From sequence record OQ031072: 64,000 nucleotides of DNA. The stretch is one strand, 5' to 3'. How positions within the stretch are numbered: position 1 is the stretch's first letter; each line of letters starts with the position of its first letter. Under the pieces are notes generated by a model. That model had not been told where the DNA came from. It worked only from the letters and a program-made list of their open reading frames with translations, and did not search any database. Source of the stretch: Shigella phage SFPB. The translations under genes and the position numbers were made by a program. Below, piece after piece: positions 7,793 to 57,863 of the stretch.

Positions 7793-8045
7793 TAGTTATC
7801 TGAAGGAGGGTTTTGAACCCTTCTATTCAGAAGAAAGTAGAAAAAAATTTGTAAAAGAGTGCTTGACTAAGATAGAGCAGTTCGGTAAAGTACTCATCAA
7901 CAAGGGACATGAAGTAAAGTTTGAGCACTTATCAAAAGATAATGTTGAGCAGTTTGCATTAGCGATTGATGGTTTATCTACAGTTTACATCTTTACCTTG
8001 ACTAATAAACATTTTGAATATGAAATATATCGGAGAGATTCATGA
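7764..8045 (+). CDS. hypothetical protein
   Basis: ORF track 93 aa. Confidence 0.35.
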   Translation: MMTVRSKLIDSYLKEGFEPFYSEESRKKFVKECLTKIEQFGKVLINKGHEVKFEHLSKDNVEQFALAIDGLSTVYIFTLTNKHFEYEIYRRDS

Positions 8046-29003: not shown

Positions 29004-29029
29004 AGGGGCTGCTTCGGCAGCCTTTTTTA
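29004..29029 (+). terminator. rho-independent terminator
   Basis: GGCTGC-TTCG-GCAGCC + TTTTTT. Confidence 0.7.
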
Positions 29030-29089
29030 TTTGAAAAATGTGCAGGTTAGTGTATAATTGTCTGCATGTTTAACAAAATAGGAGTGCAA

Positions 29090-30787: not shown

Positions 30788-30797
30788 AGTTATTATA

Positions 30798-30821
30798 GAG
30801 GCTCCTTCGGGAGCCTTTTTC
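30798..30821 (+). terminator. rho-independent terminator
   Basis: GGCTCC-TTCG-GGAGCC + TTTTT. Confidence 0.7.
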
Positions 30822-30839
30822 ATTTCTAGGAGAAGTTAA

Positions 30840-32381: not shown

Positions 32382-33176
32382 ATGGGTATCGTAAAAATTA
32401 TTAAAGGTGATATCTTTAAAGACTTTGATGGTAAGAAATTTGATATCATTGGTCACGGTTGCAACTGCATGAACTTGATGGGTGCAGGTATCGCAGCAAC
32501 AATTGCCAAACGTTACCCAAAAGCTTATGAAACTGATGCTGAAGTTTATGCTACAGTAGGTGGTGAAAATCATAACCCTAAGCATCTAATGCTTGGTAAC
32601 ATCTCTGTAGCACGTTTTAAGCAGGGTCGAATTGCTAACCTTTACACTCAGGTTATCACTGGCAAAGATGCACGATACAACGCCTTAGAAGCAGCTTTAC
32701 AGCGTCTTAACAACTACTGTAAAGTTAATCAACTTAAGAAAGTTGGACTTCCTATGATTGGTGCAGGGATTGGTGGTCTTGACAGCATGGCTGTGCTGTC
32801 TATCATCAATCAGACCATGAAAGATGTTGACGTTTATATGTATGTCTATGAAGATAAGATGTACAGTCAGTTGACTAGTCCGGTTACTGGTTGGGAAAAC
32901 TTTAGTGAACCTCAATACTTTGATGGTGTTGCCGTGGTAGGCAAGGATAAAGTTACTCTCAAGGTGAAGCGTAATGGTAAGGTACACACCAGTTACCCTC
33001 CGGTTGATAAGTACAATCGAAGTAACGCTCAAGTTACCCACCCGTTACAAGGCCATTGTCACAGAGCCGTAACATTTGGTGATGATGCAAGTGTGTATAT
33101 CGGTGCTGCTACAGAAGAGTTTGCAGAGGATTATATCACACATGAGAATGTTAACTATGTTGAAGCACGTAACTAA
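32382..33176 (+). CDS. macro-domain (ADP-ribose binding/processing) protein
   Basis: GDIFKDFDGKKFDIIGHGCNCMNLMGAGIAATI matches macro-domain GDIT...NAAN...GGGV core; ATG 32382 (track start 32325 overlaps upstream ORF). Confidence 0.5.
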   Translation: MGIVKIIKGDIFKDFDGKKFDIIGHGCNCMNLMGAGIAATIAKRYPKAYETDAEVYATVGGENHNPKHLMLGNISVARFKQGRIANLYTQVITGKDARYNALEAALQRLNNYCKVNQLKKVGLPMIGAGIGGLDSMAVLSIINQTMKDVDVYMYVYEDKMYSQLTSPVTGWENFSEPQYFDGVAVVGKDKVTLKVKRNGKVHTSYPPVDKYNRSNAQVTHPLQGHCHRAVTFGDDASVYIGAATEEFAEDYITHENVNYVEARN

Positions 33177-33201
33177 TAAGTTACCTAAATAGACATAGAC
33201 A

Positions 33202-33250
33202 AGCCCTCCAAAGTTTGAGTTTAAAATCTCAGGTAAGGAGGGCTTTTTCA
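33202..33250 (+). terminator. hairpin + T-run
   Basis: AGCCCTCC...GGAGGGCT + TTTTT. Confidence 0.5.
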
Positions 33251-33430
33251 TTTCAAATTTGTGCAGGTGCAATTGCATAGAACTCTGGACAGATTTCTTT
33301 AGCTGAACTCCAAAGGGAAAATTCATTTTCAATTTGTGCAGGTCTAGACTCCAAAGAGCTTTTTCATTTTCAATCTGTGCAGATGCAGTTGGACTCCAAA
33401 GGGAAAATTCATTTTCAATTTGTGCAGGTA
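33250..33430. repeat. tandem direct repeats (about 40 bp unit, 3-4 copies; core TTCATTTTCAATTTGTGCAGG)
   Basis: Copies near 33250, 33326, 33362, 33406 with ACTCCAAAG(G/A)G spacers. Confidence 0.6.
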
Positions 33431-33602
33431 GGTAGCTATAGGAAGCCAGCCCCACCATCCCCTCTTACTCCCCTTCCTCCCAAAAGTCAAGAGAAAAATT
33501 TGTAGAGAACTAAAAAATAATTCTTGACTAGTTTTCTGTTTTCTGTTAGTTGCGTACACGCGTTTCATTCACAACATGCCAAAAATATTTTTAAAAATTT
33601 TG

Positions 33603-33631
33603 TTGACTCTATGAATCCAGTTTTGTAGTAT
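33603..33631 (+). promoter_or_regulatory. sigma70-like promoter TTGACT-N17-TAGTAT (first cassette)
   Basis: Consensus match. Confidence 0.55.
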
Positions 33632-33685
33632 TTGCATCAACGGGGCAAGATAAAGCCCCAACAATCCTAAACTGGAGAATCTAGA

Positions 33686-33892
33686 ATGTTATATCAACGG
33701 GAATTAATGATTGTAGACAATAACAAAACTAAAAAACGTCGCTTCTTTATGTTAATCTGTGACGTGTGGCAAAGAATATCTGAAAAGGATTATGACAAGT
33801 ATGTTGATACATCAATCAGGTCGGATTGTTATTTGACAAATCACACAAGACAGTTTACAAGACATACAGCAGTTTACTACTATGACGTTTAA
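33686..33892 (+). CDS. hypothetical small protein (cassette-driven)
   Basis: ORF track 68 aa; cassette + ATG. Confidence 0.45.
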   Translation: MLYQRELMIVDNNKTKKRRFFMLICDVWQRISEKDYDKYVDTSIRSDCYLTNHTRQFTRHTAVYYYDV

Positions 33893-37031: not shown

Positions 37032-37127
37032 AAAACGTTTGACACTAATTTTTAGATAGATTAAAGTACTCATCAACGGGGCAAGACAGAAGCCCCAACA
37101 ATCCTAAACTGGAGATTCAAAAATGAA

Positions 37128-40472: not shown

Positions 40473-42017
40473 ACGTCTATACAATCTCTTTCTAGACTCT
40501 TACCAGACATTTAGAATAATAACTCTATAGATTACTCTATAACCTCTTATCAAATCAACTAACTTTTCCCTTAAATATAAGCCCATAACCCGAAAGGGAA
40601 GGGCAATCCCTAAAACGCTCTATAACGCTCTATACGGGCTTATCATCTCATCTTAAGCAATCATATTAAACCATTCTTAAAAGCCCTTCATAGAGCTTTC
40701 TAGAGCCTTAAAAGAATCTTATAAGGATATAAGCTTTATTATCTCGTTAGTATCTTGTGAATGGTTAAACAGGGGCTTGATAATAGCTTTAAAGTATGTT
40801 ATGGAGACTAAAAAGAGCTTAAAAGTAACGTAAAAGATGCTTAAAAGTAACGTAAAAGTTAGCCCCCTTTACATTCTCTTAACAAAATCTTAACAAATGC
40901 AACATAGTTATGCTTATTAGAGACTTGTTAAGCCTCAGTTAAATCCTTGTTAGAGGTATGTTAAAAGCTTGTTAGACACTTTGAAGTCCCTGTATAAGCC
41001 CCTAGAAAGCCCTATAAAGAGCTATACAGGTATTTGGGGTGTAGTTACTAGGGAGAATCTTAGAAGAGGCTATACAGAGCTACAGAGAACTTTTAAGAGG
41101 GCTTTATAGAGAATCACTAAGAAGGGAAGGGAACTATAGACCAAGAGATAGTGACCATGTTAATAGCTTGTTAAAAAGGTTTAGAACTTGTTAGCATCTT
41201 GTTAATTATCTTAACAAAATAACTATTAAGATTTAACTATTTAGCAACTTATAAGCAACTTGTTAGATTCTTGTTAGTAATGTTACAGAATGGTTAAGTT
41301 CTTGTTAGTTCTGTTAAGGGATTGTTAAGAACTCTGAAGAGATGTTAAGAGCTTGAGAGAGTTGTTAAGAGATTGTTAATGATATTTTAAGATTTTGCAA
41401 AGGGGATGTTACAGGGCTGTTAAGGGCTACCAAGCAGATATACACCCATGAGGTAGATTCTACCGAATCCACTAGTAGATATTTTTAGATTCTCCAAAGA
41501 CCCTAAAAAGTAACCTACCTAGTCTATTTTATAAAAATTTTATAGAACTGAATAACTATCTATACACTATCTTATATAAAACAGGAATTAACAGGCTTAT
41601 AAGATACCTTGTTAGTACCGTGTTAGACCTTGTAGGATAAGCCTTTACAGGGAATACCTGTTTAGTGTTATATAACAGTCTATATAGAGGCTTAGTTGAC
41701 CCTAGTGAACCATCTATAGAGAGTACTCTCTGTGACATAGAGATTAAGATGGATATAGGGGCTTCTAAGGGGCTATGAAGAGACTAGGAAGGTGATTATA
41801 TAGGTTTGGAAGAGGGCTTGTTAGAGAGCTTTGTAGAGGGCTATTTAGAAGGGGCTATATAGTTTCACTAGATAGAGACTAAGAGGCTATATAGATACTA
41901 TATAATACTATATAGAGAGTATGCTTAGATAGGTTGTTTAGAAGGTCTAGATATTTTATCACATATCATGGTGACCCAAGATGAACGGAGTGAATCCAAA
42001 TTTTATAAAATAATAAA
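40473..42017. repeat. ORF-free repeat-dense region; candidate origin or terminus-associated region
   Basis: No credible ORF; many short repeats (CTTGTTAG/TTGTTAAGA family, GCTATA(T/C)AGAG family); bounded by convergent terminators. Confidence 0.5.
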
Positions 42018-56664: not shown

Positions 56665-56670
56665 AATATT

Positions 56671-56746
56671 AGCAGTGTAGCATAACTGGAAATGCACCAG
56701 CCTCTGAAGCTGAAAGATTAAGGTTCAAATCCTTATACTGCTGCCA
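56671..56746 (+). tRNA. tRNA-Gln (anticodon CTG)
   Basis: Acceptor AGCAGTG/TACTGCT; loop CTCTGAA; G73; CCA. Confidence 0.55.
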
Positions 56747-56777
56747 CTTCTAAGGGTTCTTACGAGAGTCCTTAAAT

Positions 56778-56854
56778 GTGGCCTTATCATAAATGGATAA
56801 TGACCCATGCTGTGAACATGGTCTATACGGGTTCGATTCCCGTAGGTCACCCCA
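56778..56854 (+). tRNA. tRNA-His (anticodon GTG)
   Basis: Anticodon stem CCATG/CATGG, loop CTGTGAA; C73; CCA. Confidence 0.6.
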
Positions 56855-56861
56855 ATTTAAT

Positions 56862-56937
56862 AGCTCAATTAGCTTATATGGTTAAAGCGCGTGTCTGAAA
56901 AACATGAGAACAGGGTTCAAATCCCGATGGGCTACCA
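56862..56937 (+). tRNA. tRNA-Phe (anticodon GAA)
   Basis: Loop CTGAAAA; A73; CCA; T-stem weak. Confidence 0.5.
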
Positions 56938-56953
56938 ACTTTATAGGTGCATA

Positions 56954-57688
56954 ATGAAAGAGATGACAGAACAAAGTAAAGAGATTTTTAATCTCCTTAA
57001 AACCGGTAATGGTTTCTCAAACCCTCTTATTACTGGTGCAGCAGTTCTTGGTGGTACAGTTGCCGCTTCTCAGTCATTAGTAACTTCTATTGGTTCTGTA
57101 TCAGACCCAGCCACACAGCAAATTCTTATTGCTGCTGGACTGACAACAGCCTTATTAGGAAGCTTCACAACAAGCCTTGGAAGTACAACTTCAACGACAA
57201 GTACACTCACTGAGTATGGACAAAAGTCTGTAGATGAGTTTTCACAGCGTATGCAGGTAGCTAAAGGCTACTCTAACGTCATGGGAGCAGTAGGTGAGCA
57301 AGTTGGATGTACACCATTTAGTGGCATTATGGGTGTAGCTACTGAGTACGGCAATAAAGCGATGGATTTGATTAATACCTCCATAGACGCTGTAAACAGC
57401 GTTCTAAGCGATTTGCAAGATGCAATCGATAAAGGACTAGGGACAATCTCTGAACTCGCTACACAGGCTGTTACAGCGATTAATGAGGGCATTGCAAAGA
57501 TTACTGCATATGCTAACGAAGTAGCTCAGATGATTGCAGATGAAGCAGCATTGATTGCAGAATACCTGAAAACAAATATTAATGGTTTCCTTGCAAATGT
57601 TCTACCAAGCTGGTTTGATGATTCATGTAAAACTGGTGTGATTGATACTATTGCAACTCCAGAGATGAAAGAAGCTCTGAACAAATAA
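56954..57688 (+). CDS. hypothetical Ala/Ser/Thr-rich protein with N-terminal hydrophobic segment
   Basis: ATG 56954 just after tRNA-Phe (track start 56891 overlaps tRNA). Confidence 0.45.
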   Translation: MKEMTEQSKEIFNLLKTGNGFSNPLITGAAVLGGTVAASQSLVTSIGSVSDPATQQILIAAGLTTALLGSFTTSLGSTTSTTSTLTEYGQKSVDEFSQRMQVAKGYSNVMGAVGEQVGCTPFSGIMGVATEYGNKAMDLINTSIDAVNSVLSDLQDAIDKGLGTISELATQAVTAINEGIAKITAYANEVAQMIADEAALIAEYLKTNINGFLANVLPSWFDDSCKTGVIDTIATPEMKEALNK

Positions 57689-57689
57689 T

Positions 57690-57781
57690 GGAAGATTAAC
57701 CCTAAAGGTAAGGGAGCAGTTTGCTAAACTGCCAGTAACCGAGAAATCGGCGTACCAGTTCAAGTCTGGTATCTTCCTCCA
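57690..57781 (+). tRNA. tRNA-Ser (anticodon GCT), long variable arm
   Basis: Acceptor GGAAGAT/ATCTTCC; anticodon stem GCAGT/ACTGC, loop TTGCTAA; CCA. Confidence 0.6.
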
Positions 57782-57787
57782 AATTAT

Positions 57788-57863
57788 GTGTCGGTGTCAG
57801 AAATGGTTATGTGCCTGTCTGCAAAACAGGTTTATGAGGGTTCGAGTCCCTTCCGATACTCCA
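57788..57863 (+). tRNA. tRNA-Cys (anticodon GCA)
   Basis: Anticodon stem CCTGT/ACAGG, loop CTGCAAA; U73; CCA. Confidence 0.6.

Follow-up and report, generated by a model that had tools for sequence, protein, structure and literature searches.

A conserved direct-repeat array and its putative role as a set of protein-binding sites in Felix O1-like phages

Phage Felix O1 and related phages have a long-standing, classic place in diagnostics and biocontrol, and the locus considered here raises the question of what a group of short direct repeats is doing in the 509-bp non-coding gap (33177-33685) that follows the macro-domain gene in one of them, Shigella phage SFPB (OQ031072). Positions refer throughout to the window, i.e. 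the whole stretch of 64,000 nucleotides that was analysed. The source phage was placed as an Ounavirinae (Felix O1-like, Moogle/Susp-type) myophage: the segment 32300-34600 matched 241 phage records, and all of the close ones belong to the Ounavirinae. Citrobacter phage HP1 (Mooglevirus) was the best match for this segment, with 94% identity overall and 98.5% over the gap; Moogle, SUSP1 and Shigella Sf13-19 came next. In a sequence-only reading, the repeats had been suggested to be iteron-like protein-binding sites, serving as an origin, in partition or packaging, or as repressor operators.

Organisation of the array and its surroundings

Four copies of the consensus TTCATTTyCAAnyTGTGCAGrT, referred to as R1 to R4, were found on the same strand of the gap (Table 1). 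When the window was searched with TTCATTTTCAATTTGTGCAGGT at ≤3 mismatches, four matches were returned from the 64 kb, all on the + strand, against a chance expectation of 0; none of 100 shuffled controls gave any match. A companion motif, ACTCCAAAG(G/A)G, opens the R2, R3 and R4 units at 33307, 33348 and 33393. TRF reported the stretch 33307-33427 with a period of 45, 2.9 copies, 77% matches and a score of 150. The repeats had been described as 3-4 tandem copies of 40 bp; four copies are real, but they do not make up a uniform 40-bp array, the start-to-start distances being 75, 41 and 45 bp, and R1 had been partly missed because it is fused to a terminator. The other features first described around the repeats held up, namely the terminator immediately upstream, to whose T-run R1 is joined, the macro-domain gene and the small-gene array on either side, and a related motif near 29030, which corresponds to a fifth copy upstream of an SLT-like gene.

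Table 1. Features of the gap and of the separate fifth copy, with positions in the window
Feature	Position	Strand	Details
Fifth, weaker copy TTATTTGAAAAATGTGCAGGT	29027-29047	+	32.7 bits
Macro-domain/phosphatase gene	32382-33176		5' side of gap; Pfam Macro, E=7e-8; Felix O1 ORF13
Intrinsic terminator of macro-gene operon	33201-33248	+	Stem AAGCCCTCC/GGAGGGCTT, inner hairpin, then TTTTTC
R1: TTCATTTCAAATTTGTGCAGGT	33247-33268	+	2 mismatches to TTCATTTTCAATTTGTGCAGGT; matrix score 49.5 bits
R2 unit: ACTCCAAAGGGAAAA + TTCATTTTCAATTTGTGCAGGT	33307-33343, core 33322-33343	+	0 mismatches; 45.3 bits
R3 unit: ACTCCAAAGAGCTTTT + TTCATTTTCAATCTGTGCAGAT	33348-33384, core 33363-33384	+	2 mismatches; 46.2 bits
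R4 unit: ACTCCAAAGGGAAAA + TTCATTTTCAATTTGTGCAGGT	33393-33429, core 33408-33429	+	0 mismatches; 51.0 bits
C-rich, G-poor box CCAGCCCCACCATCCCCTCTTACTCCCCTTCCTCCC	33446-33481	+	Second conserved element, 3' of array
Conserved block AAAAGTCAAGAGAAAAATTTGTAG...AATAATTCTTGACT	33482-33529	+	Between-group identity 0.88 at 33481-33520
First early promoter of small-gene array	33582-33631	+	A/T-rich upstream block, then TTGACT-17-TAGTAT at 33603-33631
Small-gene array	from 33686		3' side of gap; products without known function (Pfam and PHROGs)

The terminator upstream of the array has stem arms at 33201-33209 and 33237-33245, the left one being CCTCCAAAG, and a T-run at 33244-33248 that doubles as the 5' part of R1. 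It was the sole stable helix in both the minimum-free-energy and the centroid folds, and its stem is kept in relatives by way of G-U pairs and compensatory changes (e.g. GGAGGGC to GGTGGCC in L076). The Felix O1 homologue is t13 (7947-7994), which at -21.8 kcal/mol is the most stable terminator of that genome (PMC3185647). A G+C-rich hairpin followed by a T-run was seen only 5' of R1, with R2 to R4 offering at most 3-5 weak pairs. R3 resembles R1 with the interior of the terminator hairpin removed (…CTCCAAAG-AG-CTTTTTCATTT…), and its stretch CTCCAAAG(A/G)GCTTTTTCATTT is near-invariant among 24 relatives, one of which has GTTTTT; R2 and R4 carry GAAAAT where the T-run would stand.

A weight matrix was built from 56 distinct orthologous sites and used to scan both strands of the window together with the 27 kb of HP1 that are absent from it (genome ~89 kb). 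Only five sites were recovered, the array copies scoring 45-51 bits and the copy at 29027 less (Table 1), and no other site reached 12 bits. Information content was near its maximum at TCATTT and GTGCAG and low across the 7 bp between them, so that each site can be described as two invariant half-sites, TCATTT(T) and (T/C)GTGCA, held apart by a free spacer of fixed 7-bp length and preceded by an A- or T-run. All five sites lie on the transcribed strand, and all are situated in gaps between a terminator and a promoter.

The copy at 29027 shares 21 of 25 aligned positions with R1, counting the preceding T-run, and stands directly 3' of the rIIB terminator (hairpin 29007-29022) in the same register as R1. 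It overlaps the -35 box and spacer of TTGAAA-16-TATAAT (29031-29058), a sigma-70 promoter matching at 11 of 12 positions, with the SLT-like gene beginning at 29066. This copy is kept in HP1, SUSP1 and Felix O1. No copy of its type was found in the first 17 kb of the Kolesnikvirus Hafnia phage SPARTY, and the lack of a promoter-overlapping fifth copy in Kolesnikvirus was counted against a transcriptional reading.

Further conserved elements lie 3' of R4. Within the C-rich box, CCCACC(A/C)TCCCCTCT was matched at 14 of 15 positions in SPARTY, and in 7 aligned Felixounavirus sequences the box is swapped for a different allele; derivation of this allele by inversion of the box was unsupported, as an equal or better score was reached by 73 of 300 shuffles. 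The promoter listed for the small-gene array was the only sigma-70-type site in a scan of 33150-33700 and is conserved in the alignment; its -35 box begins 173 bp past the end of R4, and the Kolesnikvirus counterpart lies 203 bp past the last copy there. The similarity of this distance in the two genera was counted for a transcriptional reading. Searches of 19 flanking ORFs against Pfam and PHROGs returned families of unknown function only, with no DNA-binding domain and no initiator domain among them, and the genes 3' of the array are mosaic.

Conservation of the sites across lineages

Repeats of this kind might have proved absent or variable in close relatives. Instead, the array was found after the macro gene and in the same orientation in all 28 of the distinct Moogle-, Susp- and Felixounavirus sequences aligned, nearly all of which have four copies; the 28 include one chimeric contig that is cut after the third copy. 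wV8 (L033) carries a 2-bp deletion in the third copy, and two further Felix-like genomes (L076 and L188) have three copies. Between the Moogle and Felix groups, identity was 0.90 at R1 (33227-33266), 0.82-0.86 across R2 and R3 (33305-33384) and 0.74 at R4, compared with 0.44-0.57 in the spacers and at the 3' end of the macro gene; the macro proteins of the two groups are 63-64% identical. The left half of R4 reads GGTCGGGCAAGAAAAA in Felixounaviruses, which is near-identical to the third Kolesnikvirus copy.

More distant relatives keep the same arrangement. In SPARTY, whose macro protein is 35% identical, the array again follows the macro gene and a terminator, with the motif TyATTTT-N6-yGTGCATAr at a spacing of 37/37/39 bp. 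An 88-kb IMG/VR viral contig without detectable DNA similarity to the window is syntenic (SLT-like protein 43% and macro protein 39% identical) and contains four copies of AAwTCATTTyAAnnnyGTGCATwG, one of them being GTGGATAG. Other motif matches in viral contigs turned out to be coding repeats. Several metagenomic contigs end near the array, and these ends are assembly effects (a Nextera adapter, a chimera, and a 55-bp self-overlap in the L173-source contig).

The 3' part of the site changes between lineages but is uniform within each genome, being GTGCAGGTA in Felix-, Moogle- and Suspviruses and GTGCATAG in Kolesnikvirus and the L173 lineage, with TCATTT unchanging. One variant shared by all copies of a genome amounts to concerted evolution, as would be predicted for sites that change together with the protein binding them. 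One sequence (L016) is a recombinant within the array, with R1-R2 Felix-like and R3-R4 Moogle-like, and recombination between phages inside the array could inflate its apparent conservation.

Recombination of this kind is central to the possibility that the copies are neutral leftovers of duplicated terminator tails, homogenised among co-infecting phages at the edge of a variable gene array. R1 and R3 do look like the right arm of a terminator followed by its T-run (GGAGGGCTTTTTCATTT and AGAGCTTTTTCATTT), a third terminator, at 30797, shares the tail TTTTTCATTTC though without GTGCAG, and both the L016 breakpoint and the mosaic genes downstream would fit. We nevertheless consider a neutral origin very unlikely, given that recent transfer predicts uniformly high identity rather than islands, and that the invariant cores persist amid variable spacers while the neighbouring protein has fallen to 35-39% identity. 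The array is, on these comparisons, among the best-conserved stretches of the region, and its copies are under strong selection as primary sequence.

The motif was not found described in the literature on Felix O1, wV8, VpaE1, UAB_Phi87, Moogle, Bas63 (PhageMaP) or SUSP1 (CRISPRi-ART). The Felix O1 genome paper gives t13 and several longer direct repeats, the present motif not being among the elements described, and itself notes that the timing of transcription and the passage of many terminators lack an explanation (PMC3185647). The array is a genuine cis element, under strong selection and new to the literature.

Candidate functions of the sites

Several GenBank records place a small minus-strand coding gene over the array, and ORFs of 45-137 amino acids do run across it, in many relatives as well as in the window (33045..33458). 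Start, frame and length of these ORFs, however, vary by lineage, with 2- and 4-bp indels separating groups; in Kolesnikvirus every frame is broken by stop codons, which leaves the array without a spanning ORF. Third-position variation is lacking in the invariant blocks, and the RefSeq entry for Felix O1 has no CDS between ORF13 and ORF15. A minus-strand gene is therefore scarcely credible, and the annotated ORFs are best regarded as spurious.

A function at the level of RNA was also considered, in which a single-stranded signal, carried by antisense or read-through RNA from the gap, would bind a protein or modulate processing or termination. The motif is strictly oriented with transcription, the gap is probably transcribed (an 'ORF14' RT-PCR product has been reported in Felix O1), and the C-rich, G-poor tract 3' of the array resembles a Rho loading site. 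Against this, the most stable terminator of Felix O1 stands upstream, so that little + strand RNA should reach the motif, and some Felixounaviruses have another sequence in place of the C-rich tract. Nor is the array a structured RNA: Rfam returned nothing for the array at gathering score or at E<=10, folding showed no excess over shuffled controls (z = -0.81 and -0.23 for the two strands), and an alignment of 24 sequences supported the terminator helix only, with one compensatory pair in all. Taken together, an RNA signal seems quite improbable.

Packaging and partition, both put forward at the outset, can be rejected, and the array is not the genome end. The direct terminal repeat maps to 40862-41431, from the 570-bp repeat annotated at both record ends of HP1 and the 613-bp repeat of Ro111lw (PhageTerm), which leaves the array 7.4 kb inside the right repeat; in the relative UAB_Phi87, terminal repeats of 608 bp have been shown experimentally (PMC4837284). 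Partition would be pointless in a phage that is virulent and has terminal repeats.

Known recognition sequences were then compared by eye with the conserved positions across lineages, and no fit was seen to the sigma-54, sigma-E, CRP, IHF, Fis, LexA, boxA, Chi or T7-type promoter consensus. DnaA boxes (TTWTNCACA) were likewise rejected for the window, where the copies (ACCTGCACA or ATCTGCACA) agree at 6 of 9 positions and none comes within one mismatch; Kolesnikvirus copies agree at 8 of 9 (CTATGCACA three times, and TTATGCACG), and good resemblance is confined to that genus and the L173 lineage. A CsrA-type GGA sponge was discarded because the alignment shows no conservation of GGA motifs within the Felix group. 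No Enterobacterales genome contained the repeat motif in paired copies, and a search of 5,426 E. coli genomes with the unit gave no match, so that a host regulon gains no support.

The two-part core with its fixed spacer, the strict orientation, the small number of sites, the selection on primary sequence, the concerted change and the placement between terminator and promoter together point to a set of binding sites. Our tentative reading, to which we give somewhat less than an even chance, is that the four copies and the copy at 29027 are putative asymmetric duplex-DNA sites for one, probably phage-encoded, protein acting on transcription. Such a protein, most likely a phage product, would recognise all five sites and control transcription where an upstream operon terminates and a new sigma-70 promoter takes over. 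At 29027 it would sit on the promoter -35 box and spacer, and at 33247-33429 it would form a four-site nucleoprotein block between the t13 terminator and the first early promoter, which may insulate, shut off or time the early small-gene unit. Simple occlusion cannot explain the four-copy array, because the nearest sigma-70 promoter is 173 bp away. The conserved stretch at R2 and R3 is ~35-38 bp long, exceeding one typical site, so that more than one ligand or a further constraint is possible.

The original interpretation is thus supported in part. Its core, sequence-specific protein-binding sites, agrees with all the computed evidence, with binding predicted from the DNA: position, orientation and, almost always, copy number are conserved, the cores are invariant, a variant is shared between copies, and neither RNA structure nor an ORF accounts for the pattern. 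Among the functions originally listed, operator or regulator sites give the best fit.

Published expression data for Felix O1 touch on both of the site-bearing regions. By RT-PCR, the amplicons for 'ORF14' and ORF3 reach their maximum at 25 min and those for the flanking ORF13 and ORF16 at 5 min (PMC3185647). By its number, 'ORF14' should lie in the gap, and ORF3 stands behind the fifth copy. These timings would accord with an event in the gap that follows its own schedule, the support being weak because 58% of the tested ORFs fall into the 25-min class and the assay is not strand-specific.

The same late peak could be accommodated if the copies were themselves factor-dependent, middle-type promoters, with TCATTT as activator box at about -30 and a weak -10 beginning with the TA after GTGCAGG, so that transcription would re-start later past the terminator. 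The copies do point with transcription and come right after terminators, where re-initiation is needed, and in many orthologues of R1, R2 and R4 the GCAGG is followed by a hexamer resembling TAnnnT (TAGAGT, TATTAT, TATAGT, TAATCT, TAGACT). However, no copy passes a sigma-70 scan: no -35/-10 pair was detected on either strand of 33247-33430, and minus-strand matches within the Kolesnikvirus array are not conserved. In many orthologues the putative -10 is missing A2 or T6, R3 has no such box at all, and the true TATAAT at the fifth copy is in another register, 6-7 bp further downstream. With only five sites in the genome, the copies do not amount to a promoter class, and the authors of the Felix O1 study found no polymerase-modifying factor (PMC3185647). 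For these reasons, we regard middle promoters as rather unlikely.

An origin of replication would place an initiator on the four direct repeats, with opening of adjacent A/T-rich DNA helped by transcription from the early promoter. Four same-orientation repeats of ~22 bp, their concerted evolution, which is typical of iterons, and A/T-rich DNA 60-200 bp downstream (GC 0.33 at 33500-33699) followed by a strong promoter are all in keeping with this. The fit is nonetheless poor in several respects. Spacing is irregular and varies with lineage (75/41/45 in the window, 73/39/45 in Felix O1, 37/37/39 in Kolesnikvirus), which means that helical phasing is not kept; the downstream GC of 0.33 compares with 0.31-0.35 in the neighbouring coding array, and there is no turning point of GC skew at the array. 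Annotation and profile searches of the 19 flanking ORFs gave no initiator-like gene, a novel initiator being possible, and the replication module of HP1 (polymerase, helicase and helicase loader, with no annotated initiator) lies ~30 kb off, at a divergent promoter region. The lone fifth copy, moreover, sits on a promoter elsewhere. Origin iterons, as first proposed, are therefore possible but unlikely.

Finally, by analogy with the injection stop of T5, the array could mark a DNA-entry boundary, at which the right end with the early genes would enter first and then pause until early proteins allowed release. The array is situated 8.0-8.2 kb, or ~9% of the genome, from the right physical end, and DNA entering from there would reach it just after the early promoter; in T5, first-step DNA is 7.9% of the genome. 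The array shares with the T5 signal its non-coding nature, its wealth of repeats and a conservation above that of adjoining genes (bioRxiv 10.1101/866236), and the 8/9 matches of the Kolesnikvirus copies echo the DnaA boxes noted in T5. On the other hand, two-step entry is not known from any phage of the Felix O1 type, the array is not at a constant distance from the end (~5.4 kb by estimate in Felix O1), the window copies agree with the DnaA box at only 6 of 9 positions, and large inverted repeats are neither present in Kolesnikvirus nor evident in the window. The fifth copy would also be left unexplained. We consider an entry boundary very improbable indeed; were it true, two-step genome delivery would extend to the Felix O1 subfamily of myophages.

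With five sites and two invariant half-sites, the element offers a precise small target in the search for the missing regulator of the subfamily, or possibly for an origin or entry signal. Phage engineers who replace the adjacent dispensable early-gene array should either avoid the four-copy array or probe it deliberately.

Comparison with known systems

The T5 injection stop (repeat region 3) resembles the array in lying at the inner edge of a terminal early region, ~8-9% from the end (bioRxiv 10.1101/866236). The array differs in its size (0.2 kb versus 1.2 kb) and in being composed of direct repeats only, without large inverted repeats or palindromes; the window has no good DnaA boxes, and two-step entry has never been reported for Ounavirinae.

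With the lambda origin and the iterons of theta-type plasmids, the array shares direct, asymmetric copies of ~20 bp in the same orientation, concerted evolution, and A/T-rich DNA with a promoter nearby. In contrast to the ~22-bp spacing of these systems, that of the array is irregular (37-77 bp) and unconserved, no initiator gene, skew or further origin signal was detected with it, and an extra copy is found on a promoter 4 kb away.

The PeSL elements of T4-type phages combine a promoter with a stem-loop and are repeated at every cassette. Like them, the array is a short conserved non-coding module that borders variable small early genes and has a recombination breakpoint within it (L016). Its motif, unlike a PeSL, is neither promoter nor stem-loop and is found only at the upstream edge of the gene array.

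In phage P1, asymmetric 17-bp operators for C1 are scattered over the genome, and in phi29 four p4 sites lie in the region of the early/late switch. The present sites are set apart from these by a cluster 173 bp upstream of the promoter and by the terminator-like A/T run to which each site is welded. They are like them in being non-palindromic, fixed in orientation and few per genome, in lying at promoters or between transcription units, and in being clustered intergenically. As far as the DNA itself allows a class to be named, the array fits a familiar kind, the protein-binding direct-repeat arrays of phage control regions, with binding here predicted.

Sequence features at and beside the array

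The array carries traces of recombination. In one IMG/VR contig (3300045988_001525; L016), copies 1 and 2 are Felix-like and the sequence from copy 3 on matches the Moogle type exactly, which makes this contig a natural recombinant whose breakpoint falls within the array. Two further contigs, L024 and L021 (IMG/VR, metagenome 3300045988), break off or switch here; one terminates in a Nextera adapter (CTGTCTCTTATACACATC) just past the C-rich box and the other changes to unrelated G+C-rich DNA past copy 3. These breaks were rejected as biology and attributed to assembly artefacts of the public collection.

Part of the motif is shared with a terminator elsewhere in the window. The tail of a third intrinsic terminator, with which a ribosome-binding site is directly continuous, reads TTTTTCATTTC, identical to that of copy 1, and lacks GTGCAG; the T-run-CATTT portion of the motif is thus a tail common among the terminators of this phage.

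The array is followed by a C-rich, almost G-free tract, whose minus strand presents four G-runs, each of at least three. Kolesnikvirus shares 14 of the 15 positions of its core, CCCACCnTCCCCTCT, and an unrelated allele takes the place of the tract in seven of the Felixounavirus sequences aligned. Our guesses for this tract are that it serves in Rho loading or as a structural element of the DNA.

Features of the window and of the SPARTY record
Feature	Location	Strand	Remark
C-rich, almost G-free tract	33446-33481		CCAGCCCCACCATCCCCTCTTACTCCCCTTCCTCCC, 36 nt; immediately 3' of array
ORF over array	33045-33458	-	
Two sigma-70-like sites	L158 3275-3340 (SPARTY)	minus	
Third intrinsic terminator	30797-30839		GGCTCC-TTCG-GGAGCC
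Hairpin + CAATCCTAAACTGGAG leader	33640-33685 and 37093-37114		
tRNA cluster	52101-57860	all +	23 genes

Minus-strand annotations and predicted sites

Hypothetical proteins spanning the array on the minus strand are annotated in several GenBank records (Michonne131, mistaenkt_18, Phi87_49/50 and the ESh21 CDSs), and a corresponding ORF can be read in the window. Neither frame nor length is conserved among these CDSs, and no CDS is listed between ORF13 and ORF15 in the Felix O1 RefSeq entry. These hypothetical proteins are most likely annotation artefacts. On the opposite strand of the array of the Kolesnikvirus phage SPARTY, two good sigma-70-like sites were found (TTGCCA-17-TAAAAT and TTGCCA-17-GAAAAT), which are absent from the other lineages; these predicted sites could drive a lineage-specific antisense transcript.

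Terminal repeats, operon genes and cassette leaders

Short periodic repeats (periods of 10-12, 20-22 and 31 by TRF) crowd positions 40811-41916, and the direct terminal repeats of the relatives HP1 (570 bp) and Ro111lw (613 bp) align to 40862-41431. The first 1 kb of the SPARTY record is likewise dense with TCTTAACA- and CTTAGAAG-type repeats. As candidates for packaging or end-related signals, these repeats are to be preferred to the four-copy array.

The tRNA gene cluster is as expected in a Felix O1-like phage. Upstream of the macro-domain gene of the related phage SUSP1, in the operon closed by the terminator at the array, lies gp089 (L002 2769-2930), a 53-aa protein of unknown function that was reported to be important for infection by SUSP1, with rescue by complementation (CRISPRi-ART, PMC11879866).

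Within the small-gene array, a small hairpin followed by CAATCCTAAACTGGAG, in a ribosome-binding context, is repeated upstream of several genes, and its 14-bp core is labelled as a repeat_region in the Mordin record. These elements are conserved cassette leaders and recall the shuffling modules of T4-type phages.
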